Below are positions 23,855 to 57,389 of a stretch of 64,000 bases of DNA, piece after piece. The translations under genes were made by a program, and so were the position numbers. Origin of the DNA: an uncultured Gemmatimonadales bacterium (lineage in GTDB: Bacteria > Gemmatimonadota > Gemmatimonadetes > Gemmatimonadales > GWC2-71-9); assembly GCA_963779755.1 (NCBI GenBank), contig CAVZZO010000001.1:416001-480000 (forward strand). The letters are read 5' to 3'. The first letter of the stretch is position 1, and every line of letters begins with the position of its first letter. The notes beneath the pieces are model-generated. The model saw nothing but the letters and a program-made list of their open reading frames with translations, was not told the DNA's origin and made no database searches.

Positions 23855-23864
23855 GACGAGAATC

Positions 23865-25577: not shown

Positions 25578-25619
25578 CGCGGCACCGCAACTGCAAACTC
25601 TGTTCAGCGGCGGTACCGA

Positions 25620-25705
25620 GGGGTCTGGGTGCCCAAGCAGCCCACCTGGTCGGCCGACGGTAGGCTCATCTACTTCCGGGCCTTCGAGGCAGATGGAAGG
25701 GCCGG
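25620..25705 (+). pseudogene. Single PD40 blade remnant of a kinase-receptor gene
   Basis: PKQPTWSADGRLIYFRAFEADGR resembles FPQWSADGRTIYYLSEDSGR in gene 13036. Confidence 0.55.
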
Positions 25706-26309: not shown

Positions 26310-26516
26310 ATGCTCAAGCCGGTCCTTCAGGTTGCCGGAGGTGCCGCCGTCGCCGTCCTGCTCTGGAAGCTTGCCGCCGTTCTGCTGCTTCCGCTTCTGG
26401 GCATTGCGGCGGGTATCCTGGTGCTTCTGGTGAAGATCCTCCTTTTCGGATTGGCTCTTCTGGTGGTCTGGCTCATGTACCGCTGGGTCACCAGAGCCTC
26501 TCGTCCGGCCGTCTAA
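26310..26516 (+). CDS. 68-aa hydrophobic membrane protein (paralog of 12085-12291)
   Basis: 39/68 identical by manual ungapped alignment to the 12085 product. Confidence 0.85.
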   Translation: MLKPVLQVAGGAAVAVLLWKLAAVLLLPLLGIAAGILVLLVKILLFGLALLVVWLMYRWVTRASRPAV

Positions 26517-26770
26517 GCTGGACATTCCGCCCATCCCCCGGCGCTTCTGACCGTGCGCCGGGGCCTTTCCGGTCATGCCCTAGCGATTACCGGTCCCTTC
26601 CCCGTATCGTACACATTCTCCAGAACCAGATCACACCGTCCGGATACCGCCTCGCCGCGGCTTCCGGCATATCACGAGATCCGGCCAAGTCGGGGATTCG
26701 ACCTGACCGACTCTGACCGATCTCACGAGCTTTGACTTCGTGAGCGTGCAGGCCATCCCGAGGAGGCGGT

Positions 26771-29470
26771 GTGTCGGATGTGCTGACCAGGCTGCAATCC
26801 GCGCTGGCCGACCGTTACACCATCGAGCGTGAGCTCGGTGCCGGCGGCATGGCCACGGTGTACCTGGCGCGCGATCCCAAGCACGATCGTGATGTCGCCA
26901 TCAAGGTGCTGCGCCCCGAACTCTCGGCCGTGATCGGCGCCGAGCGATTCCTGCGCGAGATCAAGACCATTGCCAACCTGCAGCACCCGCACATCCTGGG
27001 GCTGATCGACTCGGGTGATGTCGACGGGACCGCCTACTACGTGATGCCGTTCGTGGAAGGCGAATCGCTGCGAGACCGCCTGACGCGTGAAAAGCAGCTA
27101 CCCATTCCCGAGGCCGTCCGCATCAGCACCGAGGTGGCCAGCGCTCTCGACTACGCCCACCGCCACGGGGTGATCCACCGCGACATCAAGCCCGAGAACA
27201 TCCTGCTCCATGACGGGCAGGCGCTGGTGGCGGATTTCGGCATCGCGCTCGCCGTGAGCCGTTCCGATGGCGGCACCCGCATGACCGAGACCGGCATGTC
27301 GCTGGGCACGCCGCACTACATGAGCCCCGAGCAGGCCATGGGCGAGCGCGACCTCGACGCCCGCACCGACGTCTACGCGCTGGGCTGCGTGCTCTACGAG
27401 ATGCTCACCGGCGACCCGCCGTTCGATGCCTCCTCCGCCCAGGCGATCGTCGCCAAGGTGATGACGGAAAAGCCGGCGCCGCCCTCGCGGGCCCGCGAGA
27501 CGGTTCCCGACGCGGTCGAGGATGCGGTACTCACCGCGCTGGCCAAGATCCCCGCCGACCGCTTCGCCACCGCCGCCGAGTTCGCGGGGGCGCTGGAGGG
27601 ACGCGGCACCGGGGCCCGACGCATCTCGGGAGCGCGGCGCGCCACGCACACCGACCGCCGGGCGCTGTATGCGCTGGCTGCCCTCGCCCTCATCCTGGCA
27701 GTGGTTGCGATCGTGGGCTGGAGCCGTGCGGCCGGTCGCACGACCGGCGGTGACGGCCCCCTGGCCTACCATATCCACCTCACCCCGAGCGAGTCCGATG
27801 CCGGCTTCGTCGCGAACCAGTTGGCCGTGAGCGCCGACGGCAGAGTCATCGTCTACAGCGACACGGTCGGTGGGACGCGACAACTGTGGGTCAAGGAGCG
27901 CGGCGTTGCCGACCCGCGTTCGATTCCCGGCACCGAGGGAGCGTCGGGGCCGACCCTCTCACCGGACGGGCGTGCGGTCGCTTACACCGCCGGCGACCAG
28001 CTGCGGCGCATCTCGATCAACGGTGGGGCCTCGGCGCTGCTCTCCGATTCGGCCGTGGTCCCCTCCGTCTCCACCAGCGGCGCGTGGCTGGACAACGGGA
28101 CCATCGTTTTTCTCGGCGGCTCGGCAGCCATCCTGTACGTGGTGGCCGATACCGGCGGGGTGACCCGGCGCCTGGCGACCGCGGACCAGTTGTTCGGCTG
28201 GCCGACATCCATCGCCGCCGTACCCGGTCACGATGCCGTCGTGGTCTCGTCCTGCGACATCGGCGGCTGCAGCACGCCGGTCATCTCCCTGGTGCGCCTC
28301 GATCCGGTCACCAGGAAGCAGATCCTCCCGGGCACCAGTGGCGCCTGGCCGGTGGGCGGCGGCCGCATTCTCAGCCTCCTGGCCGACGGCAGCCTCTTCC
28401 TGGCCAGCTTCGACCCGACCTCCGGCGCTATCGGAGAGGGCACGCCCGTCGCCACCGGGATCGCCGTGACCGGACGCGGCCCCGAAGTCGCCATTGGCCT
28501 CGACGGGGTGATGGTCGCGGGAATGGGCGGCGGAGAGACCTTCACCAACAAGAGTCATTTCGTGTTCGCAGGTCTCGACGGGACCACCCGGACCATCGAC
28601 TCCACCTGGTCGGGGACCTTCGCCAACAACAGCCGGCTGGACCTCTCCCCCGATGGACACCGGCTGCTCTTCTCCCAGATCGAGCCGGACGGCGTCCACT
28701 ACGGCCTCTACACCAAGCCGTATCCCGACGGACCGGCGACGCTGTTCAACTTGATGGGGACGCAGAGCTCGCGTGCGGTGTGGTCCCCCGATGGCCGGCG
28801 GATCGCCTGGGTTTCGGTGGACTCGAACAACCACGCCGCCGTCTGGGAGCAGGCGGCCGACGGCTCGGGACGCCCCACCCTGCTGGTGGACGACCCGCGC
28901 GGCGTGTATGAGATCAACTTCAGTCCCGACGGACGGTGGCTGCTATACCGAACCGACGACGTCGCCGCCGGCAACGGCGACATCTACGCCCGTCGTACCA
29001 GCGGCGACACGTCGTCGATCCCGATCGCCGCGAGCCCGGCGGAGGAAACCGGGGCGGCCGTCTCGCCCGACGGTCGCTGGGTGGCCTATGCCGAGAAGAT
29101 CGGCGCCGGCAAGGAGATCATCGTCCGGCCGTTCCCGGACGTGGCCGGCGGGCGGGTGCAGGTCTCGAACGGCGGCGGCCAGGAGCCGCTCTGGAGCCGG
29201 GACGGCCGAACGCTCTACTATCGCCAGGCCAGACAGGGACAGATCATCGCCGCCACCATGGACACCGACGGCAGCTTCCCCGCCAGCGGCCGCTCCGTCG
29301 TCTGGCAGGGAGAGGCGGACGAGTACTGGGAGAACGACGATACCCGGCAGTACACCCTGACGCCCGACGGCAAGGGATTCCTGCTGATGCGCCGTATCCG
29401 GACGGCGGCGGGTGCCAAGCCGATGCATCTGGTGCTCCGCGAGCACTTCGTCCCCACGGAGGATCGCTGA
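26771..29470 (+). CDS. Array kinase 1: Ser/Thr kinase - TM - propellers
   Basis: GAGGAGG SD, GTG start; full kinase motifs; TM; SPDG repeats. Confidence 0.95.
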   Translation: MSDVLTRLQSALADRYTIERELGAGGMATVYLARDPKHDRDVAIKVLRPELSAVIGAERFLREIKTIANLQHPHILGLIDSGDVDGTAYYVMPFVEGESLRDRLTREKQLPIPEAVRISTEVASALDYAHRHGVIHRDIKPENILLHDGQALVADFGIALAVSRSDGGTRMTETGMSLGTPHYMSPEQAMGERDLDARTDVYALGCVLYEMLTGDPPFDASSAQAIVAKVMTEKPAPPSRARETVPDAVEDAVLTALAKIPADRFATAAEFAGALEGRGTGARRISGARRATHTDRRALYALAALALILAVVAIVGWSRAAGRTTGGDGPLAYHIHLTPSESDAGFVANQLAVSADGRVIVYSDTVGGTRQLWVKERGVADPRSIPGTEGASGPTLSPDGRAVAYTAGDQLRRISINGGASALLSDSAVVPSVSTSGAWLDNGTIVFLGGSAAILYVVADTGGVTRRLATADQLFGWPTSIAAVPGHDAVVVSSCDIGGCSTPVISLVRLDPVTRKQILPGTSGAWPVGGGRILSLLADGSLFLASFDPTSGAIGEGTPVATGIAVTGRGPEVAIGLDGVMVAGMGGGETFTNKSHFVFAGLDGTTRTIDSTWSGTFANNSRLDLSPDGHRLLFSQIEPDGVHYGLYTKPYPDGPATLFNLMGTQSSRAVWSPDGRRIAWVSVDSNNHAAVWEQAADGSGRPTLLVDDPRGVYEINFSPDGRWLLYRTDDVAAGNGDIYARRTSGDTSSIPIAASPAEETGAAVSPDGRWVAYAEKIGAGKEIIVRPFPDVAGGRVQVSNGGGQEPLWSRDGRTLYYRQARQGQIIAATMDTDGSFPASGRSVVWQGEADEYWENDDTRQYTLTPDGKGFLLMRRIRTAAGAKPMHLVLREHFVPTEDR

Positions 29471-32136
29471 TGGCTCCGGGTGGAATCGACCGCCTGAGCG
29501 CTGCCCTGGCCGGCCGCTACCGTCTCGAGCGCGAGCTGGGTCAGGGAGGGATGGCCACGGTCTATCTGGCCGAGGATCTCAAGCACGACCGGCAAGTGGC
29601 CATCAAGGTGCTCCGGCCGGAGCTCGCCGCGGTGATCGGTGCCCAGCGCTTTCTGGCCGAGATCAAGACCACGGCCAACCTGCAGCACCCCCATATCCTG
29701 GCCCTGTTCGATTCGGGCGAGGTGGACGGCACCGTCTTCTATGTGATGCCGTTCGTGGAAGGCGAGTCACTGCGCGACCGGCTGGCGCGTGAGCACCAGC
29801 TGCCGGTCGCCGACGCAGTACGCCTCGCCACCGAGGTCGCGAGCGCCCTCGATTATGCCCATCGCCACGGGGTGATCCACCGCGACATCAAGCCCGAGAA
29901 CATCCTGCTCCATGACGGGCAGGCGCTGGTGGCGGATTTCGGCATCGCGCTCGCCGTGAGCCGTTCCGATGGCGGCACCCGCATGACCGAGACCGGGATG
30001 TCGCTGGGCACGCCGCACTACATGAGCCCCGAGCAGGCGATGGGCGAGCGGGAGATCACCGCCCGGACCGATGTTTACGCCCTGGGCTGCGTGCTGTACG
30101 AGATGCTGGTGGGCGAGCCGCCCTTCTCCGGTCCCACGGCGCAGGCGATCATCGCCAAGGTGATGACCGCGACCCCCGAGCCGGTCACCACCTACCGGAC
30201 GACTGTGCCGCCGCCGGTCGAGGACGCCGTGCATACCGCGATCCAGCGTCTGCCTGCCGACCGCTTTGCCACGGCGAAGGAGTTCGCGGAGGCGCTGGCG
30301 GGCGACGGCTCGGCGCCCCGTCGCACCAGCGGGATAGTGCGAGACCGGCCAGCCTCCACGGCGCGCTGGCTCCGCGACTGGCGCAGCATCGCGGCACTGG
30401 CGGCGGTGGCGGTCCTCGCGGTCTGGGGAATGGTCGCCGGCGGTGCTGCTCCAGCGGCAATCGACGAAAGTCACAAGGAGTACCTGAGCTTCCCGGACTC
30501 CCTCGCACCAGTCTCGGTCGTCGGACGCACCTTCGCCATCTCCCCCGATGGCCGCAATGTCGTGTTCCCCACTGCCGGTGCAGCGGGCAGCGGATCGACG
30601 ACCCACCTGCTGCTCAAGCGGCCCAACCAGCTCGACCCCGTTGCGATTTCGGGCACCACCGATGCCCGGTGGCCGGAGTTCTCGCCGGACGGCTCCCAGT
30701 TGGCCTACGTGCGCTCGGTGTTCGCCCAGGGTGCGCTCCAGACCATTCCAGTTTCTGGCGGGACACCCCGCACCTTGGTGGCCGACTCGGTCTTCATCGG
30801 TGCCTCCTGGGGTGATGACGGCTACATCTACTACTCCAGGCTGGGCGGGATCTTCCGGATACCGGGTGAAGGCGGGCGCATCGACACCCTGACGCGTCCT
30901 AAGGCCAGCGGGGCCACCACCGACTGGTGGCCGGTGGCCGTGCCGGGCGGTCGCGGGGTGGTGTTCACCCGGCAGCGTGGCTCCGGCCCTCTCGAGTTGC
31001 TCGCACTCCCCGCGGGGAGCTCCGAGCCGCGACAACTGACTGAGGGCATCCCCGTCGCCATCCTCCCCTCCGGCACATTCATCTTCTCGACCGACGGCCG
31101 ACAGTTGTACGCGGTGGCCTTCGATCTCCAGCGGCTCGAGCTCCGCGGCAATCCGGTGTTGCTCGCCTCCGACTTGCGGAACAACGGCGTCACCATTGCC
31201 GATGCCGCCTTCTCGGCGAGCGGCTCGATGCTTTACTGGAGCGACGGCGGCGCCGCGCGGAAGGTCTACTGGGTGGACCGGAGTGGTGTCGCCCGGCAAA
31301 TCGACCCCGCCTGGCGGACGCCCGTGGCCGAGTCCCCGGCCATTTCTCCCGACGGTCGCCGCCTGGCCATGTCGGTGGGGCATGGGCTCGAGGTGAAGCA
31401 GCTGGACGAGGGGCCCGCCACGCAGGTGGTCCGCCCGATCGGCGGACGGAACAACCTGAGGCCGGCGTGGCACCCGGACGGGCGGTCGTTGCTGTTCTAT
31501 CGCAGTGGCGGCAAGGACTCGGTGCTGCAGGTGCGCGACGACGGAGTCGGTGACCCGACCCCGACGGTGGATGAGCCCCGGGGGGTCGCCGATGCGATCT
31601 GGTCGCCCGATGGCCGATGGATGGTCTTCCGCACCTCGGTGGAAGCGGAGAACGGGTCGGACATCTACGCCAAGCTGGTGGATAGCGACGAGCCCGCGAT
31701 CCCGATCGTCACCTCCCCTTCCTCCGATGTCACGCCGGAGTTCTCGCCGGATGGGAAGTGGTTGGCCTATGCCTCGAGCGAGTCGGGCATCTTCGAGGTG
31801 TACATCCGGCCGTTTCCCAATGTCGAGGACCGCCGGATTCAGGTCTCGGCACGAGGCGGGCGGCAGCCGCGCTGGTCGCGTCGGAGCGGCGAACTCTTCT
31901 TCGTGGGGCCGGAGGAGATGCTGATGTCGGTGCGTATCCGGACCTCCCCGACTCTCGAGGTCGGGACGCCAGTGCCGCTGTTCCGGGTCACACCATACTA
32001 CATCAGCACCGCGTTCCACAAGAACTACGACGTGGATGCCGACGGGCAGCGATTCGTGATGGTCGGAACCGGCGGCATCCCGCAGGTCATCCGGATCGAC
32101 AACTGGCTGGTTGATTATCCGGAGCTCCGCAAATGA
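29470..32136 (+). CDS. Array kinase 2: Ser/Thr kinase - TM - propellers
   Basis: ATG overlaps the previous stop (TGATG); MAPGGIDRLSAALAGRY; full kinase motifs. Confidence 0.95.
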   Translation: MAPGGIDRLSAALAGRYRLERELGQGGMATVYLAEDLKHDRQVAIKVLRPELAAVIGAQRFLAEIKTTANLQHPHILALFDSGEVDGTVFYVMPFVEGESLRDRLAREHQLPVADAVRLATEVASALDYAHRHGVIHRDIKPENILLHDGQALVADFGIALAVSRSDGGTRMTETGMSLGTPHYMSPEQAMGEREITARTDVYALGCVLYEMLVGEPPFSGPTAQAIIAKVMTATPEPVTTYRTTVPPPVEDAVHTAIQRLPADRFATAKEFAEALAGDGSAPRRTSGIVRDRPASTARWLRDWRSIAALAAVAVLAVWGMVAGGAAPAAIDESHKEYLSFPDSLAPVSVVGRTFAISPDGRNVVFPTAGAAGSGSTTHLLLKRPNQLDPVAISGTTDARWPEFSPDGSQLAYVRSVFAQGALQTIPVSGGTPRTLVADSVFIGASWGDDGYIYYSRLGGIFRIPGEGGRIDTLTRPKASGATTDWWPVAVPGGRGVVFTRQRGSGPLELLALPAGSSEPRQLTEGIPVAILPSGTFIFSTDGRQLYAVAFDLQRLELRGNPVLLASDLRNNGVTIADAAFSASGSMLYWSDGGAARKVYWVDRSGVARQIDPAWRTPVAESPAISPDGRRLAMSVGHGLEVKQLDEGPATQVVRPIGGRNNLRPAWHPDGRSLLFYRSGGKDSVLQVRDDGVGDPTPTVDEPRGVADAIWSPDGRWMVFRTSVEAENGSDIYAKLVDSDEPAIPIVTSPSSDVTPEFSPDGKWLAYASSESGIFEVYIRPFPNVEDRRIQVSARGGRQPRWSRRSGELFFVGPEEMLMSVRIRTSPTLEVGTPVPLFRVTPYYISTAFHKNYDVDADGQRFVMVGTGGIPQVIRIDNWLVDYPELRK

Positions 32137-34796
32137 GCGAGGACATGGCCACGCTTGCGGCCGCCCTGGCCGACCGCTACACCCTCGAGCGGGAGCTGGG
32201 CGCCGGCGGGATGGCCACGGTCTATCTGGCGCACGACCTCAAGCACGACCGCCAGGTGGCCATCAAGGTGCTCCGGCCGGAGCTGGCCGCCGTGATCGGG
32301 GCCCAGCGCTTCCTGGCCGAGATCAAGACCACGGCCAACCTGCAGCACCCCCATATCCTGGCCCTGTTCGACTCGGGCGAGGTGGGCGGCACCGTCTTCT
32401 ACGTCATGCCGTTCGTGGAAGGCGAGTCGCTGCGCGACCGGCTCACCCGCGAGCACCAGCTGCCGGTGGGCGACGCGGTGCGCATCGCCACGGAGGTGGC
32501 GAGCGCCCTCGATTATGCCCATCGCCACGGGGTGATCCACCGGGACATCAAGCCGGAGAACATCCTGCTGCACGACGGGCAGGCGCTGGTGGCCGACTTC
32601 GGGATCGCGCTGGCGGTAAGCCGTTCCGAGGGCGGTACCCGGATGACCGAGACCGGGATGTCGCTGGGCACGCCGCACTACATGAGTCCGGAACAGGCCA
32701 TGGGGGAGCGGGAGATCACCGCCCGGACCGATGTTTACGCCCTGGGCTGCGTGCTGTACGAGATGCTGGTGGGCGAGCCGCCCTTCTCCGGTCCCACGGC
32801 GCAGGCGATTATCGCCCGGGTGATGACCGAAGAGCCGCGCTCGCTCACTATCCAGCGGCGGTCGGTTCCCGAGAACGTCGAAGCAGCGGTCTTTACCGCG
32901 CTGGAGAAGCTGCCGGCGGACCGCTTCGCATCGGCCGCCGAGTTCGCCGCCGCCCTGGCCTCTGACGGGATCACCACCCGGCGGGTCACCCGCGCGATGC
33001 CTTCGGTACGGCAGCGCGGACTGCGCTCGCGCTGGATCGCGCCGGCCGCCGTCGTGGTGCTCGGCGTCGCCGCGCTGTGGGGCTGGCTCCGTCCCGGTCC
33101 CGCCCAGGTTCCCAGCCGGCAGCGGGTGGTCCTCTGGCGCACCACGGCCGCGGATTTCCTCAGTCCCAGCGCCCTGCGCATCGAGTCCCGGGTCGCCATC
33201 TCGCCCGACGGGGCCTGGATCGTCTTTGCCGACTCGGCCGGCGGCGACACCCAGCTCTTCCTCAAGGGACGCAACGAGCGCAGTGCCACGCCGATTGCGG
33301 GCACTGAGGGCGCCGCCAGTCCTTTCTTCTCGCCCGATGGAGAGTGGATCGGGTATCTGACCCACGGCAAGCTCCGCAAGGTGCGCGTCTCCGGCGGCGG
33401 CTCGATTCAGCTTGCCACCACCGGAAACACGACATATGAGGTTGGCACCTGGCTGGACGACGGGACCATCGCCTTTACCGACAACAGCGGCGGCATGTCC
33501 CGCGTCCCGGCCGAAGGTGGAGCGGTCACGGTCCTGCGCGCGCCGAGGAAGGACCACCGCGACGATCCCTCGGCTCTCTCCCCACTGCCGGGGAGCCGGG
33601 GCGTGCTCTTTACCGGCTGTCCCGGCAATTGCGCCAGCGCCTCGGCGCTGTACGCCTACGACATCCGGCGCGATACCACGCTGCTCCTGGTGCCCGATGC
33701 GGCGGGTGGGTGGTATTCGCCCACCGGCCACCTGCTCTACGTCAGCCGGGCTGGCGGGCTGTTCGCGGTGGGATTCGACCTGAAGCACATGAAGGTTACC
33801 TCGGGTGCCGTGTCCGTCGCCGACAGCGTGGCGCCGAATGGGCTGACCTTGTCCGCTTCCGGCACGGCGTTGCTCACCTTCGGCACCGAGAACTTCGACG
33901 GCTCGACGCTGGACTGGGTGTCCCGCGATGGAACCCAGGAGCCCTTCGCTCCCGACTGGACGGGAAACTTCGAGTATCCCGCCCTGGCGCCCGACGGCAG
34001 AACCGTCGCGGTGAGTATCCGGAATGGTGTGACGAAGCTCTGGATCCGCCGCGCGGATGGATCGCGGATCCGCGTAACGCACGGCGACCTGGGGAGCTGG
34101 CGGCCCAGTTTCAGCCCGGACGGGCGCAGCTTCGCCTTCATTACGGCCGACGGCGCCACATCCGATTCGGGGGCCAAGGACGCGTATCTCAGCCCGGCCG
34201 ACGGCAGCACCCCGCCGCGGCTCCTGCTCGATATGGTACCGGGGATCTGGGAGGTCGAGTTCAGCCGGGATGGGCAGTGGGAACTGTTCCGAACCGACGA
34301 TGCGGCATCGTACGGGGTGTTCTACGCCCGCCGCCTGCACGGCGATACCACCCTGCGCCTGATCCATTCGGACAGCAGCTTCAACACTCAGATGGCGCTT
34401 TCGCCCGACAGCAAGTGGCTGGCCTTCACCTCCGACCATTCAGGGCACTCGGAGGTCTATGTCGCGTCGTTCCCCGACATGCAGATCAAGTATCCCGTGT
34501 CGCAGGGCGGCGGGACCGAGCCTCGCTGGGCCCATAGCGGGCGGGAGCTCTTCTTCAAGAGCCACGGCCAGCTGATGAGCCTTCCGGTGAGGCCGGGCGC
34601 CGGGTTCTCCCCGGGGAGTGCCCGGCCGCTCTTTCCGGTCGGGCAATACGCCGATGCCATCAACCGGCAGCAGTATGACGTCAGTCCGGACGATCGCCGC
34701 TTCCTGATGATTCGCCGCCCGGCCAGCAGTGGCCGGCAGGAGGTGGTACTGGTGGAGCATTTCTTCGAGGACCTCAGGTCCAAGGTGAAGCCGTGA
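32133..34796 (+). CDS. Array kinase 3: Ser/Thr kinase - TM - propellers
   Basis: ATGA overlap; full kinase motifs; TM; SPDG repeats. Confidence 0.95.
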   Translation: MSEDMATLAAALADRYTLERELGAGGMATVYLAHDLKHDRQVAIKVLRPELAAVIGAQRFLAEIKTTANLQHPHILALFDSGEVGGTVFYVMPFVEGESLRDRLTREHQLPVGDAVRIATEVASALDYAHRHGVIHRDIKPENILLHDGQALVADFGIALAVSRSEGGTRMTETGMSLGTPHYMSPEQAMGEREITARTDVYALGCVLYEMLVGEPPFSGPTAQAIIARVMTEEPRSLTIQRRSVPENVEAAVFTALEKLPADRFASAAEFAAALASDGITTRRVTRAMPSVRQRGLRSRWIAPAAVVVLGVAALWGWLRPGPAQVPSRQRVVLWRTTAADFLSPSALRIESRVAISPDGAWIVFADSAGGDTQLFLKGRNERSATPIAGTEGAASPFFSPDGEWIGYLTHGKLRKVRVSGGGSIQLATTGNTTYEVGTWLDDGTIAFTDNSGGMSRVPAEGGAVTVLRAPRKDHRDDPSALSPLPGSRGVLFTGCPGNCASASALYAYDIRRDTTLLLVPDAAGGWYSPTGHLLYVSRAGGLFAVGFDLKHMKVTSGAVSVADSVAPNGLTLSASGTALLTFGTENFDGSTLDWVSRDGTQEPFAPDWTGNFEYPALAPDGRTVAVSIRNGVTKLWIRRADGSRIRVTHGDLGSWRPSFSPDGRSFAFITADGATSDSGAKDAYLSPADGSTPPRLLLDMVPGIWEVEFSRDGQWELFRTDDAASYGVFYARRLHGDTTLRLIHSDSSFNTQMALSPDSKWLAFTSDHSGHSEVYVASFPDMQIKYPVSQGGGTEPRWAHSGRELFFKSHGQLMSLPVRPGAGFSPGSARPLFPVGQYADAINRQQYDVSPDDRRFLMIRRPASSGRQEVVLVEHFFEDLRSKVKP

Positions 34797-45478: not shown

Positions 45479-47889
45479 GTGGAGCACCCCCGGGTCTGAT
45501 CGCAGCTCTGGCTGACCGCTACACCATCGAGCGCGAGCTGGGCGAGGGCGGCATGGCGACCGTCTACCTCGCCACCGACCTCAAGCATGGGCGACAGGTT
45601 GCTATCAAGGTGCTCAAGCCGGAGCTTGCCGCCGTCCTCGGCGCCGAGCGGTTCCTGGCGGAGATCAAGACGACGGCCAATCTGCGGCACCCGCATATCC
45701 TGCCGCTGTTTGACAGTGGCCGGGCCACCGTTCCCCCTCTCCCCGGTGGGGAGAGGGGGACAGGGGGTGAGGTCCTCTACTATGTTATGCCGTTCGTGGA
45801 GGGTGAGTCGCTGCGCGACCGGCTGACCCGCGACCGGCAGCTTCCGATCGGGGAGGCGCTGCAGATCTCCCGGGAGGTGGCCGACGCCTTGGGCTACGCC
45901 CACAGCCGGGGCATCGTGCATCGGGATATCAAGCCGGAGAATATCCTGCTGGAGAACGGCCACGCGGTGGTGGCCGATTTCGGCATCGCCCGCGCCGTCA
46001 GTTCCGCGGGCGGCGACCGGATCACCCAGACCGGCATGGCGGTCGGCACGCCGCTCTACATGAGCCCGGAGCAGGCGGCCGGTTCCGGCGATCTGGACGG
46101 CCGGAGCGATCTCTACAGCCTGGCCTGCGTGCTGTACGAAATGCTGGCCGGCGAGCCGCCCTTTACCGGCGCGACCCCGGCGGTGATCACCCGGCAGCAT
46201 ATGATTACCGAGGCAGCGCCGGTCACTAACAAGCGGCCGGCGGTACCCGCGCATGTGGCCGGCTCGCTGGCCCGCGCCCTGGCCAAGGACCCGGCCGACC
46301 GGTTCAACCCGGTGGCGCAGTTCGCACAGGCGCTCACCGATGGCCCAGCCGCCCCGGCAGCAACCGCGACGGCACCGGCCGACTCCTCCCGCTCACCGCG
46401 GCGCCGGTGGTTCGCCCTGGCGGCCGGCGGGGTGCTGGTCGTTGCCGCGGGCGCCTGGCTGTTGACCAGGACACTCCGGCAGGGAGGGGCCACAACAGCC
46501 GGGGTCATCCGGTCCATCGCGGTCATGCCGCTCGACGACTACTCGGCCGACTCGACCCAGGCGTACTTCGCCGAGGGAATGACCGACGAGCTTACCACCG
46601 ACCTGGCGAGCATCAGTTCGCTGCGGGTCATCTCGCGCGGGTCGGTCATGCAGTACGCCGGCGGCAACCGTCCTCCCGCCCCGGAGATTGCCCGGTCGCT
46701 GAACGTGGATGCGATTGTGGAAGGCTCCGTCACCCGCGCGGGCGACAGGGTGCGGATCACCGCCCAGCTGATTGACGCGCGGGCCGACCGTCATCTCTGG
46801 GCCCAGAGTTTCGAGCGGCAGTCGAGCGACGTGCTGGCGCTGCAGGCCGAGCTGGCCTCGGCTATCGCCAGCGCCATCAACGCGCGGATCACCCCCGCCG
46901 AGCAGACCCGGCTGGCCGCGGCACCGACGGTCGATCCGGCGGCGCACGACGCCTACCTGCGCGGCCGGTACTTCTTCGCCCGGCCGAACGATGAAAATCT
47001 GGAGAAGGCCATCGCGCAGTTCAACCAGGCGGTCAGTCTGAGTCCCGATTTCGCGCCGGCCTGGTCCGGCCTGTCCGACGCGTATCTGTGGGCGGCGTTC
47101 AACGAGGGGTTCATCAGTGCTCGCGAGGCCGGCCCCAGAGCCAGGGAGGCGGCCGAGCGTGCGGTGCAGCTCGACAGCACGTTGGCGGAGGGTCACACCT
47201 CGCTCGGGACTTATCTGGCGTGGTTCGCGCACGACTGGACCGGGAGTGAGCGCGAATTGCGCCGCGCCATCGCGCTCAATCCCAACTACGCCTTCGCGCA
47301 CGACCAGTTCGGACTGATCCTCAGTATCCTGGGGCGATTTGACGCGGCGATCGCCGAGGGGAAGCGGGCCATGGCGCTCGACCCCCTGTCGCCGTCTATC
47401 CTGATTGATGCCATGGTGGCGTTTGTTTACCGGCCCGATGTGCCGGCCGCCACCGCGCTGGCCCAACGCACCAGCGACCTCGATCCCACCTTCTTCTTTC
47501 CCTATTCGCTCATGGCCAAGCTCGACGTCCAGCTGGGGAAGGCGCGGGAGGCGGTTTCCCTGCTGGAGAAGGCCCGCACCATGGGGGCCCCCTCGTTTGT
47601 GACCGGCGAGCTGGCCTATGCCTACGGGATGACCGGCGACCAGGCCAGGGCCGAGGCGACACTCGCCGATCTGAAGAAGATGTCGCGCAGCGGCGAGGGG
47701 TTGCCTTATGACCTGGCGCTCTACTACCTGGGGCAGCGCAATACGGCCCGCACGCTGGACTACCTGGAGCAGGCGTTTGCCGCCGATGCCCAATCGCTGG
47801 TGTGGCTCAAGGAGGATACCATCTACGATCCGCTACGGCAGAACCCGCGGTTCATCGCGCTCATGCAGAAGATGCACTTCACCTCATGA
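45475..47889 (+). CDS. Array kinase 8: Ser/Thr kinase - TM - TolB-N - TPR, with in-frame hairpin insert
   Basis: ATGA overlap at 45475; SIAVMPL...YFAEGMTDEL; TPR helices. Confidence 0.95.
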   Translation: MSGAPPGLIAALADRYTIERELGEGGMATVYLATDLKHGRQVAIKVLKPELAAVLGAERFLAEIKTTANLRHPHILPLFDSGRATVPPLPGGERGTGGEVLYYVMPFVEGESLRDRLTRDRQLPIGEALQISREVADALGYAHSRGIVHRDIKPENILLENGHAVVADFGIARAVSSAGGDRITQTGMAVGTPLYMSPEQAAGSGDLDGRSDLYSLACVLYEMLAGEPPFTGATPAVITRQHMITEAAPVTNKRPAVPAHVAGSLARALAKDPADRFNPVAQFAQALTDGPAAPAATATAPADSSRSPRRRWFALAAGGVLVVAAGAWLLTRTLRQGGATTAGVIRSIAVMPLDDYSADSTQAYFAEGMTDELTTDLASISSLRVISRGSVMQYAGGNRPPAPEIARSLNVDAIVEGSVTRAGDRVRITAQLIDARADRHLWAQSFERQSSDVLALQAELASAIASAINARITPAEQTRLAAAPTVDPAAHDAYLRGRYFFARPNDENLEKAIAQFNQAVSLSPDFAPAWSGLSDAYLWAAFNEGFISAREAGPRAREAAERAVQLDSTLAEGHTSLGTYLAWFAHDWTGSERELRRAIALNPNYAFAHDQFGLILSILGRFDAAIAEGKRAMALDPLSPSILIDAMVAFVYRPDVPAATALAQRTSDLDPTFFFPYSLMAKLDVQLGKAREAVSLLEKARTMGAPSFVTGELAYAYGMTGDQARAEATLADLKKMSRSGEGLPYDLALYYLGQRNTARTLDYLEQAFAADAQSLVWLKEDTIYDPLRQNPRFIALMQKMHFTS
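45732..45760. repeat. REP-like palindrome inside kinase coding sequence (copy 2)
   Basis: TCCCCCTCTCCCC-GGT-GGGGAGAGGGGGA. Confidence 0.85.
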
Positions 47890-50534
47890 CCGATACTTCC
47901 GGGATCGCCGCCGCGCTGGCCGGTCGCTACCGGATCGAGCGTGAGCTGGGGCAGGGAGGCATGGCCACGGTGTATCTGGCCCAGGACCTCAAGCACGACC
48001 GGCAAGTGGCTATCAAGGTGCTCCGGCCGGAGCTGGCCGCGGTGATCGGGGCGCAGCGCTTCCTGGCCGAGATCAAGACCACCGCCAATTTGCAGCATCC
48101 GCACATCCTGGCGTTGTTCGATTCGGGCGAGGTCAACGGCACCGTCTTCTACGTGATGCCGTTCGTGGAGGGTGAATCGCTGCGCGACCGCCTGGTCCGC
48201 GAGCGCCAGCTGCCGGTCGCCGAGGCGGTGCGCATCGCCACCGAGGTCGCGGCCGCGCTCGACTATGCCCATCGTCACGGCGTGATCCACCGGGACATCA
48301 AGCCGGAGAACATCCTGCTCCACGACGGCAGCGCCCTGGTGGCCGACTTCGGCATCGCGCTGGCGGTGAGCCGGTCCGACGGAGGCACCCGGCTGACCGA
48401 AACCGGGATGTCGCTGGGGACGCCGCACTACATGAGTCCCGAGCAGGCGATGGGCGAGCGCGAGATCACTGCCCGGACCGATATCTACGCCCTTGGATGC
48501 GTCCTGTACGAGATGCTGGGGGGAGAGCCGCCGTTCTCCGGACCGACGGCGCAGGCGATCATTGCCCGGGTCATGACGGAGGAGCCGCGGTCGCTTACTG
48601 CCCAGCGCCGCTCCGTCCCCGACTACCTCGAGGCGGCGGTCTTTACCGCCCTGGACAAGCTGCCGGCGGATCGATTCGCCACCGCGGCGGAATTCTCGGC
48701 AGCGCTGGCGGGCCAGGACCCGGGCATCCGCACCACGGCGCGCCGGCCGGCCGCGATGGCCGGATCCGGGCCATGGCGGCGCGTCAGCCTGCTGCTTGGG
48801 GTGGCGACGATCGCGCTGGCCGGACTCGCCTTCTGGGCACTGACGCGCTCATCCGGACGTGCCGCACCGACGGTCTATGATGTCGGCCTCCCAGACAGCG
48901 CCAGGATGAATCTCGTCAGCAGCCGGTCCCGCATCGGACCGTACGGCGCGCAGGTGCGCAATCTTTCGGTGGACCCTGCGGGCAATTTCGTCGTCTACGC
49001 GGCGACCCGCGGTGATTCCACCTCGCTCTGGGTCCGCAGTCTTCGCACGGCCGAGGTTCGTGAGTTGCCGGGAACCGAGGGTGGCACCGGGCCACGGATC
49101 TCTCCCGACGGGGAGCAGGTCGCGTACTTCAATGACGACCGGATGATGGCGATCCCGATCGACGGCTCGGAGCCGCGCCTGCTGATGATGGCCAGCAGTG
49201 GCGCGATGATCGACTGGACGTCCACCAGCCAGTTCGTCACCGTCGACAACGACGGCTATCGCTTCAACCGCTTCGATCCGAAGACCGGTTCCACCCAGTC
49301 GGCCACGATCGACCGCTGCGTGTTCGGGGTGTGGGTTCCCGAATCCCGTGAGCTGCTCTGCTCGTTCAACGGCATTGCCCAGACCATCGAGCCGGAATCG
49401 AATGCCGTCACCACCATCCGCATCGCCAATCCCGACGGCTCGCCCGGCAACCCAGCGGCCGGCAGCGCCTTCCGCATGGTCGAGGGGAGGTACCTCCTCT
49501 GGCTGGCCACCGACGGCAACCTCGTCGCTGCCACCTACGATCCGGCCCGCCACCTTGCCGGGCCGCCGACCCGAATGCTTGCCGGCATCCGGCGCGAGGC
49601 GCTGGGCGAGGGGCAATACGACATCTCGGCGGATGGGACGCTGGTCTACGCTCCGGGGCTCGACGCGACCATTGGTCGTCTCGTGCGGTTTCACCCGGGT
49701 CGGAAGATCGAACCGCTGCCGATCGAGGGTGCCGACTACCAGCGCTACGACCTCAGCGACGACGGTCGCTGGCTTGCCGCGGTCACTCCGGGCAGCGATG
49801 CCATGGAGCTGCGCATTTATGACCTGCAGAACGGCCAGCGATCGACCTGGCTGCGCGCCGAAGCGATCCGCCATGCCATGTGGAATCCCGGCGGCGACCG
49901 GCTCCTGGTCGCCGCCCAGCACGATTCGACCTGGGCCCTGCTCCGCGGTTCTCCGGGATCGGGACAGCCCGCCGACACGCTGGCCACCTGGGGTCCGGGA
50001 GAGGGCTACCTCGACCCGATCGGCTATCCCTTCGATTCCCTCGCCATCGCGCTTGACTGGAGCTCGGGCGTCGTGGCCTCCTTCGACCCGCGACGCAAGG
50101 CACCGGTCTTCGATACCGTCCTGACCGGAGCGCGCTTCCCGAGCGTCGCGCCGGGCGGCCACCTGATCACCTATCAGACCGTGGACCAGAGTCGCATCGT
50201 CGTCACCACCTTCCCCGAGGCGAGCCGCCGGTGGCAGGTGGCCACGCTGGGGGTCGAGCCGATCTGGCTCTCCGACACGGAATTGCTTTATCGCTTCGGC
50301 GCGAGCTGGTATCTGGTCCGGGTGAACCCGACGACCGGCGAGCCCCAGGGCGCCGCCACCTTCTGGGGCAGGGATCTCAGGTTCTCGGACACCTCGGGCT
50401 GGTCCAATCGTCCCGACCATACCGGCGGCGTGATCTACGTGGAGAGCCCTCAGCAGCCGGATCCCGGTTACCTGCGCGTGATCCCCGGCTGGGTCGATCA
50501 GATGAAGCGCGCGGTAGCGAAGGCAAGTCGATGA
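47886..50534 (+). CDS. Array kinase 9: Ser/Thr kinase - TM - divergent propellers
   Basis: ATGA overlap at 47886; full kinase motifs; TM; ISPDG repeats. Confidence 0.95.
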   Translation: MTDTSGIAAALAGRYRIERELGQGGMATVYLAQDLKHDRQVAIKVLRPELAAVIGAQRFLAEIKTTANLQHPHILALFDSGEVNGTVFYVMPFVEGESLRDRLVRERQLPVAEAVRIATEVAAALDYAHRHGVIHRDIKPENILLHDGSALVADFGIALAVSRSDGGTRLTETGMSLGTPHYMSPEQAMGEREITARTDIYALGCVLYEMLGGEPPFSGPTAQAIIARVMTEEPRSLTAQRRSVPDYLEAAVFTALDKLPADRFATAAEFSAALAGQDPGIRTTARRPAAMAGSGPWRRVSLLLGVATIALAGLAFWALTRSSGRAAPTVYDVGLPDSARMNLVSSRSRIGPYGAQVRNLSVDPAGNFVVYAATRGDSTSLWVRSLRTAEVRELPGTEGGTGPRISPDGEQVAYFNDDRMMAIPIDGSEPRLLMMASSGAMIDWTSTSQFVTVDNDGYRFNRFDPKTGSTQSATIDRCVFGVWVPESRELLCSFNGIAQTIEPESNAVTTIRIANPDGSPGNPAAGSAFRMVEGRYLLWLATDGNLVAATYDPARHLAGPPTRMLAGIRREALGEGQYDISADGTLVYAPGLDATIGRLVRFHPGRKIEPLPIEGADYQRYDLSDDGRWLAAVTPGSDAMELRIYDLQNGQRSTWLRAEAIRHAMWNPGGDRLLVAAQHDSTWALLRGSPGSGQPADTLATWGPGEGYLDPIGYPFDSLAIALDWSSGVVASFDPRRKAPVFDTVLTGARFPSVAPGGHLITYQTVDQSRIVVTTFPEASRRWQVATLGVEPIWLSDTELLYRFGASWYLVRVNPTTGEPQGAATFWGRDLRFSDTSGWSNRPDHTGGVIYVESPQQPDPGYLRVIPGWVDQMKRAVAKASR

Positions 50535-53491
50535 GCCTGGAGCACCTTTCCACCGCCTTGGCCGGCCGCTACCGGATTGAGCGGGAACTGGGTGCCGGCG
50601 GGATGGCGACCGTCTACCTCGCGGCCGACCTCAAGCACCACCGCCAGGTCGCCATCAAGGTGATGCACGAGGAGCTCTCCGCGGCGATCGGGGGCGAGCG
50701 GTTCCTCCGTGAGATCACCACGATCGCCAGGCTGCAGCATCCGCACATCCTGCCGCTGATCGACTCCGACAGAGCCGGAGGCATGCTCTACTACGTGGCA
50801 CCCTATGTCCGCGGCGAGACCTTGCGGGAGCTGCTGACCAGGGAGGGCCGGCTCGCCCCCGACCGGGCCGCGGCGCTGGCCCTCGAGATCGCCGATGCCC
50901 TCGCCTATTCGCATCGCGAGGGCGTGGTGCATCGCGACATCAAGCCGGAGAACATCCTGCTCCAGGAAGGGCACGCCGTCCTCGCCGACTTCGGCGTGGC
51001 CCGCGCCCTGACCGCCGCCGGTGGGACCACCATGACGCAGGCGGGGTTTGCCGTGGGGACCCCGGCGTACATGAGCCCCGAACAGGCGACGGCGTCCCCG
51101 GTGATCGACGGGAAGGCGGACATCTACGCCCTGGGCTGTGTGCTGTTCGAGATGCTGGCCGGTCAGCCCCCGTTCACCGGCAGCAACCTCCAACAGGTTG
51201 TCGCCGCCCATGTCACCACCCCTGCGCCGGCGATCGGCAGTATCCGCGACGACACTCCGCCCGCCCTCGCCGACCTGGTGACGGCCTGTCTCGCCAAGGA
51301 TCCGACGGCCCGGCCGTCCGCCGCCGTGGTCGCCGAGCGGCTCAAGACCACCACGTCGGGCGTATCGGCTGCATCCCGCGCCGGTGGGCGGGGGCGCCTG
51401 ATCGCCCTCACGGGAGCCGCATTGGCACTCCTGGCTGCCGGCGGGTGGTGGGCCCTGGGACGCAAGGCCACCTCGTCGACATCCATCAGCGGCGACGCCT
51501 CCGAGATCGCGGTCATGCCCCTCTCGGCGATCTCCGACAGCTCGCTGGCGCGGCTGGGCCAGGATCTCGTGGTGACACTCAGCACCACGCTCGATGGCGT
51601 CGGCGAGTTGCACACCGTCGATGCGCCGACGCTGCTGCTCAACACCCGGGATGCCCCCTCGCCGCTCCCTCTCGACCGGGCTCGCGAGATCGCGACCCGC
51701 CTCGGCGCCGGCAGTGTCCTCACGGGAACGTTGATTCACGAATCGGGACAGGTGCGGGCGGCGGTCGCGCTCTATCGGGTCGGTGAGGACACCGCGATCG
51801 CCCGGGCCAGCACCCTGGCACTCGCGGAGGATATCTCGGCCCTCACGGACTCCCTCACGTGGCAGGTGCTCCGGCAGGTCTGGCGCGGCGGGGCACCGCC
51901 GTCGCCGGTGCTGGCCGGGCTCACCACCTCCTCGTTCGAGGCGCTGCGGCACTTCCTCGACGGCGAGCGACACTTCCAGCAGCTCGACGTGGACGCGGCG
52001 ATTGCCGAGTATCGCCGCGCGTTCGAGCTCGACTCCAACTTTGTCCAGGCCTACCTGCGCTACGATGCCGCGCGGACCTGGAGCCTTGAGAACGCCGACT
52101 CTGCCGCTCATGCCCGCCTGCTGGCCCTCGCCGGCCGGCTGCCGGACCGCGAGCGGCTCTGGCTCGAGGCTACCGAACAATCCGGGCCGCTGCCTGAGCG
52201 GGTGGCCCGCTGGCAGGAGCTGATCCGACGCTACCCCGACTATCCGCCGGTCCTGATGTCCGGCGTGGACGGCATCGTGCACTCCGGCCCGGTCTATGGA
52301 ATCGACCTGGCCGGGGCGCTCCCCGTGCTCGCGCGGCTGGCCCGGCTCACGCCAGACAATGCCGACGTCTGGATGCACAAGGGCGCCGTGGAGGAAGCAC
52401 TCGGGAAGTCGGCAGAGGCGGCGCAGTCCTTCCAGCGGGGAGCGACAGCCGCACACGGGTTCTTCGGAGAGTTGCTGGCGACCACGGCCGCGATCAGCCG
52501 CTCGCTCGCCACGCCCGGCCAGCCGTTGCCCGATGATTGGGGTAACGCGGCGGTCCGCGCCTATGCCGACCTGCCCGCCGGAAACCGCCAGTTGGTGCTC
52601 AGCGGCCTGCTGTCCTTCGTCGATGGTCGGATTCCCGAGCGACTGGCGCTGGTCGAGAAGGCACAGCGCGACGGGCGCTACCAGGGAGAGGTCCTGACGA
52701 GTTCGCGGTTTGGCGAGGGGGTGCTGCGCATCGCCCGGGGAGACTGGACCGGCGGAGTGGCGGCGCTCCGCCAATACGAGGCCGCCAACGGTTCGGTCAG
52801 CGACCGACTCAGCGCCGCACGCCTCGCGACCGTCGGCGCCTGGCTCGGGATGGTCGATCCGGCCGTGGCCGCTGCTGCCATCGGTCGCGTCAGGGCCATG
52901 CCCGATGTGGAGCAGCAGGCCACCGACCGGATCGAACTGCAGTGGCTCGCGGGACTGCTGGCGATCGTGACCGGCGATGCGCCGGCCGTGGAGCGCACCA
53001 GCGCGACCCTGCGCAAGGAATCCAATCCGGTCGCGGCTCATGCCGCGGCATCCCTCCGGGCCGAGTGGCTCGTCAAGGAGGGCGCCGAGGGCGCGGCGGA
53101 CTCCGTTCAGGCGGTCAGCGATGCCATGATGCGAGAGGGGAAGTATCTCTTCGTGGCGGAGGTCGTCAATCGTTTCGTGATCGCCCGCGCGCTGCGCAAT
53201 CGTGGGCAGCCCGCCGCGGTCGAGCGCTACCTGATGTGGACCGACGCGCAGGTCAACACGGCCAGGACCTGGAGCATCCGTTTCGCTCTCGGCCCACTGG
53301 CGCAATTCGAGCGTGGCATGGCACTGGAAGAGGCCGGCAATCACGCCGGCGCTGTATTGCAGCTCTCCCGCTTCCTGGCCACGGTTGACCCGTCAGCGAC
53401 CGGGCAGCAGACGATGATCACCGAGGCCAGGCGTGTGGTGTCGGAGCAGGTCGGCGCCGACAGTGCCCCGAAACAGGGACTCGCCCCGTGA
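50531..53491 (+). CDS. Array kinase 10: Ser/Thr kinase - TM - TolB-N-like - long helical/TPR region
   Basis: ATGA overlap at 50531; full kinase motifs; IAVMPL; TTSSFEALRHFLDG. Confidence 0.93.
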   Translation: MSLEHLSTALAGRYRIERELGAGGMATVYLAADLKHHRQVAIKVMHEELSAAIGGERFLREITTIARLQHPHILPLIDSDRAGGMLYYVAPYVRGETLRELLTREGRLAPDRAAALALEIADALAYSHREGVVHRDIKPENILLQEGHAVLADFGVARALTAAGGTTMTQAGFAVGTPAYMSPEQATASPVIDGKADIYALGCVLFEMLAGQPPFTGSNLQQVVAAHVTTPAPAIGSIRDDTPPALADLVTACLAKDPTARPSAAVVAERLKTTTSGVSAASRAGGRGRLIALTGAALALLAAGGWWALGRKATSSTSISGDASEIAVMPLSAISDSSLARLGQDLVVTLSTTLDGVGELHTVDAPTLLLNTRDAPSPLPLDRAREIATRLGAGSVLTGTLIHESGQVRAAVALYRVGEDTAIARASTLALAEDISALTDSLTWQVLRQVWRGGAPPSPVLAGLTTSSFEALRHFLDGERHFQQLDVDAAIAEYRRAFELDSNFVQAYLRYDAARTWSLENADSAAHARLLALAGRLPDRERLWLEATEQSGPLPERVARWQELIRRYPDYPPVLMSGVDGIVHSGPVYGIDLAGALPVLARLARLTPDNADVWMHKGAVEEALGKSAEAAQSFQRGATAAHGFFGELLATTAAISRSLATPGQPLPDDWGNAAVRAYADLPAGNRQLVLSGLLSFVDGRIPERLALVEKAQRDGRYQGEVLTSSRFGEGVLRIARGDWTGGVAALRQYEAANGSVSDRLSAARLATVGAWLGMVDPAVAAAAIGRVRAMPDVEQQATDRIELQWLAGLLAIVTGDAPAVERTSATLRKESNPVAAHAAASLRAEWLVKEGAEGAADSVQAVSDAMMREGKYLFVAEVVNRFVIARALRNRGQPAAVERYLMWTDAQVNTARTWSIRFALGPLAQFERGMALEEAGNHAGAVLQLSRFLATVDPSATGQQTMITEARRVVSEQVGADSAPKQGLAP

Positions 53492-53611
53492 CCCTCGGCA
53501 CGGCGGCATCATCTACCGGAAGGGCCGAAGGCCACCTCGGTGAACTATCTTCGGGTGATGCCGGATTGGATCGCGAAAATGAAGCGGCTGGCCGACGAGG
53601 CAAACCGGTGA
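53488..53611 (+). pseudogene. Scar of a deleted 11th array kinase gene
   Basis: GTGACCCTCG head, then HGGIIYRKG/PKATSVNYLRVMPDWIAKMKRLADEANR*, homologous to the end of kinase 9. Confidence 0.75.
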
Positions 53612-54612: not shown

Positions 54613-54633
54613 CGTCTTGTGCCTTGCCCCGCC

Positions 54634-54657
54634 CCCCCTCCCTACACCGGGAGGGGG
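54634..54657. other. GC-rich hairpin between convergent genes (possible terminator or REP relative)
   Basis: CCCCCTCCC-TACACC-GGGAGGGGG followed by ACCCGGGG, resembling the intragenic kinase hairpins. Confidence 0.55.
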
Positions 54658-54703
54658 ACCCGGGGCCGATTCAGCCGCGACGTGGGGCCATCCTTCCAGC
54701 AGG

Positions 54704-57177: not shown

Positions 57178-57389
57178 CTTGCCGTCTTGCCGTCTTGCCG
57201 TCTTGCCGTCTTGCCGTCTTGCCGTCTTGCCGTCTTGCCGTCTTGCCGTCTTGCCGTCTTGCCGTCTTGCCGTCTTGCCGTCTTGCCGTCTTGCCGTCTT
57301 GCCGTCTTGCCGTCTTGCCGTCTTGCCGTCTTGCCGTCTTGCCGTCTTGCCGTCTTGCCGTCTTGCCGTCTTGCCGTCTTGCCGTCTTG
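57178..57389. repeat. Perfect octamer tandem repeat (CTTGCCGT)x26.5
   Basis: 26 exact units 57178-57385 plus CTTG. Confidence 0.97.

Follow-up and report, generated by a model that had tools for sequence, protein, structure and literature searches.

We have analyzed a window of 64,000 nucleotides (nt), about 68% G+C, from the genome of an uncultured Gemmatimonadales bacterium (GenBank assembly GCA_963779755.1, contig CAVZZO010000001.1, positions 416,001 to 480,000 of the forward strand). All positions given here are those of the window. It contains an array of ten open reading frames (ORFs) coding for receptor-like Ser/Thr kinases, K1 to K10, that follow each other without a gap on the + strand over 26.7 kb (26771-53491; Table 1). 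The original prediction, made from the letters of the DNA, had described ten abutting genes with overlapping stops and starts, and this held at each of the nine internal junctions, with overlaps of 1 or 4 nt. The overlap is TGATG (1 nt) at 29470, GTGA (4 nt) at 34793 and 37411, and ATGA (4 nt) at the other six (32133, 40035, 42953, 45475, 47886 and 50531). All ten reading frames are intact and the sequence of each junction is unique. The N-termini of the array proteins align, with equal length, with those of six other kinases of the window that are preceded by ordinary upstream spacers, and the proposed starts are supported by this match.

The array is probably read as a single operon from a promoter in the non-coding leader upstream of K1 (26518-26770), and translation would probably be handed from gene to gene via the 1-4 nt overlaps. 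Co-transcription is suggested by the overlapping stops and starts. A consensus scan found no sigma-70-like site in the leader and Rfam no family there, nor was there any match in the whole window with Rfam (gathering thresholds) or ARAGORN. Over the larger region 25500-57700, consensus scans for promoters and terminators gave counts at or below the shuffled expectation.

All array genes matched the Pfam family Pkinase (PF00069), with E values between 6.8e-45 and 2.9e-54 and scores of 154-185 bits (cut-off 31.7). The motifs AIK, HRDIKP(E/D)N, DFG and SPE/APE were present in every one of them, as was a Gly-rich loop of the form LGxGGMATVYLA and an activation loop of the TxT type, with its threonines kept in all ten. 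Judged by these motifs, the ten are Hanks-type Ser/Thr kinases with intact catalytic motifs, which agrees with the RD-type kinase predicted for each gene. Calling the kinase constant, as was also done, was an overstatement. The domains are 51-90% identical and fall into about five subgroups: K1, K2, K3 and K9 (78-90%) with K7 nearby, K4 and K5 (85%), K8, K6, and K10. Identity from one subgroup to another was 51-60%, except for K8, which reaches 67% to K4. Pairs with kinases 78-90% identical had sensors only 22-35% identical.

One hydrophobic segment follows the kinase in 10/10 proteins (amino acids (aa) 287-316). Nine of them pass a Kyte-Doolittle value of at least 1.6 over 19 aa, and K4 reaches 1.72 over 17 aa, so that the single transmembrane (TM) helix expected per gene was located in all cases, although weaker in K4. 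Lysine and arginine were at least as frequent on the kinase side as on the other side in nine proteins, which is the arrangement of the positive-inside rule. This pattern points to a cytoplasmic kinase, a single membrane helix and a periplasmic C-terminal tail.

The tails are diverse. Pfam PD40 matches were strong in K1 to K3 and weak in K4 (1e-7) and K5 (7e-11). In hhalign, a profile of the K4/K5 family matched the profile of the K1-type sensor over 305 columns (98% probability, E 2e-13), and the look-alikes of the K5 sensor in the Atlas were PD40/Tricorn_N clusters (score 0.98). Pfam, hhalign and these look-alikes together suggest the fold class of the K5 sensor. A search of the PDB with the K4 sensor sequence gave no match, and a six-sequence profile of the K4-type sensor found there weak propeller matches only (E 0.014-0.018). 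The K9 sensor had no Pfam match and a weak one to a TolB-propeller model of NCBIfam; it aligns with the K1 sensor (28% identity over 505 aa), and both matched TolB propellers in the PDB (1.6e-7 for K1 and 4e-6 for K9). As for the remaining four, Pfam recognized FGE-sulfatase and dienelactone-hydrolase (DLH) domains in K6 and TPR in K7, K8 and K10. TolB_N was found in K8 with the full protein and in K7 with the excised segment (4.4e-5), and it was not detected in K10, excised segment included. The sensor types proposed at first (six with a propeller, three of the TPR type and a single FGE plus hydrolase) are therefore confirmed, except that TolB_N is missing in K10. Presumably each sensor would bind a different periplasmic ligand. 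One of the Atlas clusters nearest to the K5 sensor, with PD40/Tricorn_N, has the name 'Transcriptional regulator, CadC family'. As a lead only, this hints that the K5-type propeller might also be fused to membrane-bound DNA-binding outputs in Acidobacteriota.

In order to compare the locus with its relatives, one scan of genome contigs anchored on the K6 sensor was used, which provided 80 loci. Of 8000 candidates scored against the K6 sensor, 7518 were relatives at E<=1e-3, many of them about 60% identical over the full length; the named matches belonged to Gemmatimonadales/Gemmatimonadaceae. Kinase ORFs were counted in the 39 loci of at least 21 kb. The nine Gemmatimonadota loci had 8, 7, 6, 3, 2, 2, 1, 1 and 1 of them, the 29 from Acidobacteriota had at most three and the single one from Calditrichota had three. 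Arrays recur in Gemmatimonadales and they are not fixed. The closest relative (L002, with a K6 sensor 91% identical, on a contig of 784 kb) has the order unknown propeller, K4-like, K2, K5, K6, new propeller, K9, new TPR and K10, and lacks K3, K7 and K8 within the 22 kb examined. Again in this case the junctions are ATGA or GTGA overlaps, at 8/8 of the evaluable ones. In another relative (L003, K6 87% identical), K6 stands by itself in the 10 kb to its left and right. Both order and content of the genes thus differ in these relatives, and a fixed gene order, which would have spoken against the shuffling envisaged at first, was not found.

The sensors themselves are well conserved. In the sensor tree, those of K2, K3, K4, K5 and K9 group with orthologues from other Gemmatimonadales with 97-100% SH-aLRT support, and the ratio of nonsynonymous to synonymous change (dN/dS) against L002 was 0.12-0.23. 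By these measures the sensors are old and distinct families under purifying selection, not fast-evolving ones. They are variable in the sense of the original prediction, being of diverse types, but with such dN/dS values and with orthologues in other Gemmatimonadales they are not hypervariable.

The kinase halves have a different history, and the first evidence comes from silent sites. We measured how often the third base matched at fourfold codons of identical residues, for which the random expectation is about 0.41-0.42. In the kinase domain the matches were 105/151 (0.70) for K2-K3, 88/138 (0.64) for K4-K5, 84/136 (0.62) for K1-K2, and 0.74 for Xd-Xf, two other kinases of the window. In the sensors of the same array pairs they stayed around the expectation, with 52/109 (0.48), 90/226 (0.40) and 55/118, within an overall sensor range of 0.28-0.53. 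The difference between kinase and sensor gave Fisher p values of 5e-4 (K2-K3), 9.5e-6 (K4-K5) and 0.017 (K1-K2). The K4-K5 sensors, with proteins about 60-61% identical, are saturated at silent sites. Distant kinase pairs sit at the expectation (0.43 for K6-K10), and for this reason there is no general codon effect of the kinase domain. Besides, there are exact shared tracts of 134 nt (K1/K2), 104 nt (K2/K3) and 65 nt (K3/Xc, the latter also a kinase outside the array). Not one of 2000 shuffles produced the corresponding stretches of 44, 34 or 21 identical codons, with 91 pairs tested, and in a PHI-type test none of 1000 permutations reached the observed value in any of the three groups. Silent sites and tracts were both computed inside the window, and they are for that reason independent of the relatives.

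The comparison with L002 indicated the same. Sensors of K2, K5 and K9 were 94, 98 and 88% identical to their counterparts, with kinases 84, 87 and 78% identical, and the synonymous change (dS) of kinase and sensor was 0.571/0.177, 0.457/0.032 and 0.676/0.398, respectively. For K6 and K10, the kinases without a close paralogue, there was no gap between sensor and kinase (91/93 and 93/94%). About 450 nt from the start of K5, identity to L002 jumps to 91-100%, against 72-81% before that point. The high-identity tract that includes the K5 sensor (Table 1) starts at the K5 catalytic-loop codons; identity is 75-78% in its left flank and about 83-95% in its right one. It looks like a recent exchange with its ends in kinase DNA. 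The identity between K2 and its L002 copy K2' also switches near the catalytic-loop codons, and from three cases we infer that crossovers may cluster there. In L002, the 5' kinase segments of K2', of the new propeller gene and of K9' are 92-98% identical to that of window K1 and 93-99% to each other.

Trees gave a consistent picture. In a kinase tree of 59 rows, window K9 groups with window K3, and the K9 orthologues of L002 and of another relative, L031, group with K1. The L031 orthologue of the K8 sensor (80% identical) carries a kinase of another clade, and in L005, L030 and L031 the kinases joined to sensors of the K3 and K4 types belong to other groups. Approximately unbiased (AU) tests rejected the sensor groups as kinase clades, with p 3.5e-5 for the K9 trio, 0.025 for the K2 pair and 3e-51 for the K8 pair. 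Kinase and sensor trees are therefore incongruent, where congruent ones would have spoken against the original prediction, and the idea that the kinase DNA supplies homology for gain, loss and shuffling gained support from the differing order, the incongruent trees and the conversion signatures. Could the genes simply be old tandem duplicates that diverged, with kinase likeness kept by purifying selection on the protein and no recombination at all? It would suit the low dN/dS found throughout (0.12-0.26 over the whole range, indicating purifying selection), the conservation of kinase domains across all bacteria, and the vertical behaviour of K6 and K10, which have like identities to L002 in both halves and stand with their orthologues on the kinase tree. 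We consider it quite unlikely. Selection on the protein cannot give an excess of fourfold matches in kinases beside saturated sensors, and it leaves unexplained the exact tracts of 134 and 104 nt, the sensors 88-98% identical joined to kinases 78-87% identical, and the AU rejections.

An artefact of assembly, by which dispersed kinase paralogues were misjoined or collapsed, has to be considered too, because the kinase-coding DNA recurs in units of about 830 nt that are 62-88% identical. However, the longest exact repeat between copies is 134 nt, no junction sequence occurs twice, none of the ten reading frames is broken, and similar arrays with overlap junctions appear in the independent assemblies L002, L005, L030 and L031, so that this possibility seems very remote.

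Our analysis makes it likely that K1 to K10 are ten paralogous single-pass receptor Ser/Thr kinases of one operon, which evolves by birth-and-death and by recombination in the kinase DNA. Short-tract gene conversion would homogenize parts of the kinase domains among array members. Crossovers would fall inside the kinase domains, often near the segment of the catalytic loop and DFG, and the unit that is moved, added or removed, within and between related lineages, would consist of the C-lobe, the sensor and the N-lobe of the next gene. Purifying selection would meanwhile keep each sensor family.

Several points weigh against this interpretation. Since the promoter and terminator scans stayed at chance level, there may be internal promoters, and the window ORFs scanned included neither a substrate nor a phosphatase or an FHA partner. 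The controls of the tract and PHI-type analyses ignore rate differences from site to site, and in many pairs the longest identical run lies in the catalytic-loop codons, where the signal is partly constraint. The sensor groups of the AU tests had been set from identity tables before testing, but with the kinase tree already seen. The comparison genomes are metagenome-assembled, and mis-joins at kinase repeats of about 800 nt could mimic rearrangements or mosaics; L002 itself has frameshifts in K5' and K10'. A misassembly of the window would also weaken the evidence from inside it. Finally, an unequal crossover between K3 and K5 was sought and not found, and no specific deletion junction can be named. 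The candidate had been the adjacency of K2' and K5' in L002, taken as a K3/K5 chimera; it was rejected, as the 5' part of K5' is nearest to K4/K5 (79-84%) and not to K3.

A more far-reaching version, for which we have only tentative sympathy, is that the kinase segment serves as a portable homology arm, with crossovers around the catalytic-loop/DFG codons by which sensor cassettes would be swapped, duplicated or lost, inside the array as well as between related Gemmatimonadales. Selection would preserve the set as a single translationally coupled unit, and the homogenized kinases would cross-activate each other, integrating many periplasmic cues in one phosphorylation network. A common substrate, like the shared output envisaged at first for the many inputs, would be conceivable. 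Related to it is the view that the array is a unit of interacting kinases, with mixed dimers or cross-phosphorylation, in which selection for compatible surfaces drives the homogenization. This view is compatible with recombination in the kinase DNA and adds a functional cause to it. Kinases of the PknB type are activated through dimerization and trans-phosphorylation. The tight coupling of ten genes, the 78-90% identity of the K1, K2, K3 and K9 kinases and the activation-loop threonines kept in all ten would agree with such contacts. On the other hand, the kinases of K6, K8 and K10 are only 51-67% identical to others in the array, K6 is solitary in relatives and members therefore work outside an array, and conversion is expected anyway as a passive by-product of tandem repeats. 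Interaction as the driving force is, in our opinion, unlikely.

Outside the array, Pkinase was found in six of the 29 other window ORFs tested (Xa to Xf, Table 1). The six further kinase genes predicted are there, one of them, Xd, being frameshifted. Around Xd there are remnants of others: a relic of a propeller C-terminus upstream of it (57419-57586), a kinase fragment of 170 nt (59132-59302) that is 86% identical to Xc residues 41-97, and a second propeller C-terminal relic (59275-59415). A weak fragment of an ISL3 transposase lies at 59384-59641 on the - strand (E 6e-4). The kinase remnants at 57.4-59.4 kb fit a birth-and-death process. The best hydrophobic score of Xe over 17 aa was 1.03. 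Its tail would accordingly be cytoplasmic, although the same type is predicted to be periplasmic in K7 and K8.

This part of the window also has a perfect tandem repeat of the octamer CTTGCCGT on the + strand, with 26.5 copies at 57178-57389 and 7.1 copies at 62098-62154. Two degenerate copies are found at 57632-57646 (+) and a related array at 11943-11988 (-). A 15-mer search for the repeat gave 37 matches against 0.25 expected. The + strand arrays end 10-35 nt before kinase-type starts, namely the ATG of a relic at 57401, Xd at 57662 and Xf at 62186; the repeat is absent 5' of K1. It may be a promoter or leader element of variable copy number, or a binding array.

Just 5' of the leader there is a very hydrophobic ORF of 68 aa (26310-26516) without a family match. 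Downstream, the longest ORF of a GH43 glycoside hydrolase shares the GTGA at 53488 with the stop of K10. The signal peptide of this hydrolase, however, starts at GTG 53608, which makes a coupling with K10 doubtful; translation probably begins there, 116 nt after K10. A + strand ORF of 458 aa at 54617-55993 was considered as a twelfth gene and discarded, having no family match and lying opposite to a multicopper oxidase. On the other side of the array, 22412-25577 code for a histidine kinase that contains a cyclic-nucleotide-binding domain. After it comes a response-regulator receiver joined to a pyridine-nucleotide-disulphide oxidoreductase, which is not a common output domain in two-component pairs. 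A tricorn-like protease (PD40, Tricorn C1, PDZ and peptidase S41) at 7312-10611 has the same PD40 class as the kinase sensors. A PD40-like stretch read by eye near 25617-25700 had no blastx match at E<=1e-3 to the six kinases for which matches were listed. FHA, PP2C and ECF sigma domains were absent from the window ORFs scanned, in agreement with the original prediction, in which no such partner had been recognized.

Two candidate defence genes, PDC-M21A (5131-5649, E 8e-30) and PDC-M21B (5646-6365, E 6e-51), were identified with PADLOC. Behind them, up to 7334, there are short ORFs with only partial matches to type III restriction-modification enzymes, of 230 aa for the methyltransferase (model of 616 positions) and of 179 aa for the restriction enzyme (871 positions), and these are probably remnants. 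Such neighbours, together with the PADLOC models PD-T4-6 and mad6, which matched all ten array kinases (E 1e-60 to 1e-96), raise the question of whether the array could be made of anti-phage kinases of the PD-T4-6, MADS or BREX PglW kind. The PADLOC matches are confined to the generic kinase domain (residues about 7-290). The NCBIfam scores of K6 and K9 are far below the cut-offs, 169-173 against 460 for MAD6 and 81-84 against 990 for PglW, and a membrane helix with periplasmic propeller or TPR sensors is unlike those systems. Besides, the defence-like genes are 20 kb away and no partner genes adjoin the array. We give almost no credit to a role in defence of this type.

Table 1. Features of the kinase array and of its surroundings in the 64,000-nt window, in order of position.
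Feature	Position	Strand	Remarks
Xa: kinase with TPR tail	3..2225	-	runs off the window
Xb: kinase with PD40 propeller	13036..15705	+	
Xc: kinase with PD40 propeller	15904..18588	+	kinase 77-82% identical to K1, K2, K3, K9
Non-coding region upstream of K1 (presumed promoter/leader)	26518..26770	+	253 nt; GGAGG 6 nt before K1 GTG start, read directly
K1: kinase, TM (about aa 298), PD40/TolB-like propeller	26771..29470	+	Pkinase 6.6e-51, PD40 1.5e-23
Tract in K1 kinase shared with K2 (29863-29996)	27161..27294	+	134 nt; exact identity; rest of domain ~80% identical; taken as gene-conversion tract
K2: kinase, TM, PD40 propeller	29470..32136	+	start shares 1 nt with K1 stop
Tract in K2 kinase shared with K3 (32706-32809)	30046..30149	+	104 nt; exact identity
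K3: kinase, TM, PD40 propeller	32133..34796	+	ATGA overlap
K4: kinase, weak TM (aa 316), divergent PD40-like propeller	34793..37414	+	GTGA overlap; hhalign
K5: kinase, TM, divergent PD40-like propeller	37411..40038	+	K4 paralogue (kinase 85%, sensor 60-61%)
High-identity tract, window against L002: mid-K5 kinase, K5 sensor, into K6 kinase	37844..40540	+	95-100% identical
K6: kinase, TM, FGE-sulfatase-like, dienelactone-hydrolase-like	40035..42956	+	Pfam
K7: kinase, TM, TolB_N-like, TPR	42953..45478	+	Pfam
K8: kinase, TM, TolB_N, TPR	45475..47889	+	Pfam
K9: kinase, TM, K1-type propeller	47886..50534	+	alignment with K1 sensor; PDB TolB
K10: kinase, TM, TPR-containing sensor	50531..53491	+	Pfam
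GH43 glycoside hydrolase ORF after K10	53488..54612	+	Pfam 8.7e-45
Multicopper oxidase, next gene after GH43	54704..56005	-	convergent
Xd: frameshifted, truncated copy of Xf	57662..59142	+	frame change near 58546-58552
Xe: kinase with TolB_N-like/TPR tail	59652..61898	-	without hydrophobic segment
Xf: kinase with propeller tail	62186..64000	+	runs off the window; kinase 94% identical to Xd

There are known proteins of similar architecture. PknD of Mycobacterium tuberculosis has a kinase, one TM helix and an extracellular beta-propeller, and the array proteins resemble PknD and PknB in the order of their parts. An RD kinase that has threonines in its activation loop is at the N-terminus, and a single membrane helix connects it to a sensor made of repeats that would be extracytoplasmic. 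Two array genes, K6 and K9, were scanned with the NCBIfam models of PknD and PknB, which matched their kinase domains. However, the scores were far below the equivalog cut-offs, 164-166 against 839 for PknD (PRK13184) and 266-312 against 450 for PknB_PASTA (NF033483), and K6 and K9 are not orthologues of either. The sensors differ as well, being PD40/TolB-like, TPR or FGE and not NHL or PASTA, neither of which had a match among the ten array proteins, and the genes form an array while those known kinases are single genes. There is also a likeness to TolB, the periplasmic protein of the Tol-Pal system, through the propellers of K1 and K9 and the TolB_N of K7 and K8. In the array, though, these domains are fused to a kinase via a membrane helix, the K9 score for the TolB equivalog of NCBIfam was 37 against a cut-off of 343, and there are no Tol-Pal genes near the array.

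Expansions of such kinases are already in print, and the novelty implied by the original prediction is lower for this reason. The domains that are most frequently attached to prokaryotic kinases include TPR, WD40 and PD40 (PMC2877116). In the parts of PMC11032199 available to us, which cites Perez et al. 2008 for kinase expansions, lineage-specific Ser/Thr kinase expansions are reported in Myxobacteria and Planctomycetota, with 525 kinases in 'Ca. Uabimicrobium amorphum', periplasmic WD40 or TPR tails and some adjacent duplicates, and species-specific clades of kinase domains are ascribed to 'duplication and/or recombination'. The same parts describe no long array with all genes overlapping, no conversion evidence from silent sites or tracts and no orthologous sensors with swapped kinases, and the phylum here is a different one, Gemmatimonadota. 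For the soil bacterium 'Candidatus Solibacter usitatus' Ellin6076, a large family of kinase paralogues was described with no positive selection and 'little' substitution saturation (PMC3174227); the paralogues are generally less than 50% identical over the full length, and no array or conversion is described in the sections we refer to. It is worth mentioning that the K6-type sensor also occurs in Acidobacteriota, with no more than three kinase ORFs per 22 kb in the 29 loci.

In the literature searched, to which subscription journals and supplements did not belong, there was no description of kinase arrays in Gemmatimonadota or of gene conversion in bacterial kinase domains, and a term search of the accessible text of a comparative-genomics paper on this phylum (PMC11596202) found no mention of kinases. 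The elements that appear to be new are the fully overlapping array of ten genes and the sequence evidence for an exchange of kinase halves beside conserved sensor halves. The locus reveals no new kind of molecular machine. Its value is that the origin and organization of bacterial Ser/Thr kinase expansions are poorly documented, and here there is a concrete and testable case that could become a model for the assembly and reshuffling of receptor repertoires in bacteria. It suggests, too, that such kinases are plentiful in Gemmatimonadales, soil bacteria that are abundant but have been little studied.

A parallel, by analogy only, is found outside prokaryotes, in the tandem clusters of plant receptor-like kinases such as the L-type lectin receptor kinases, which can be likened to the array in that a kinase and an ectodomain are repeated side by side and evolve by unequal recombination and by birth and death. 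The plant proteins have the kinase at the opposite end, whereas the genes described here lack introns, are probably polycistronic and carry sensors of unrelated families. If the kinase segment really acts as a homology arm, the array would be a bacterial counterpart of the dynamics of these plant clusters.

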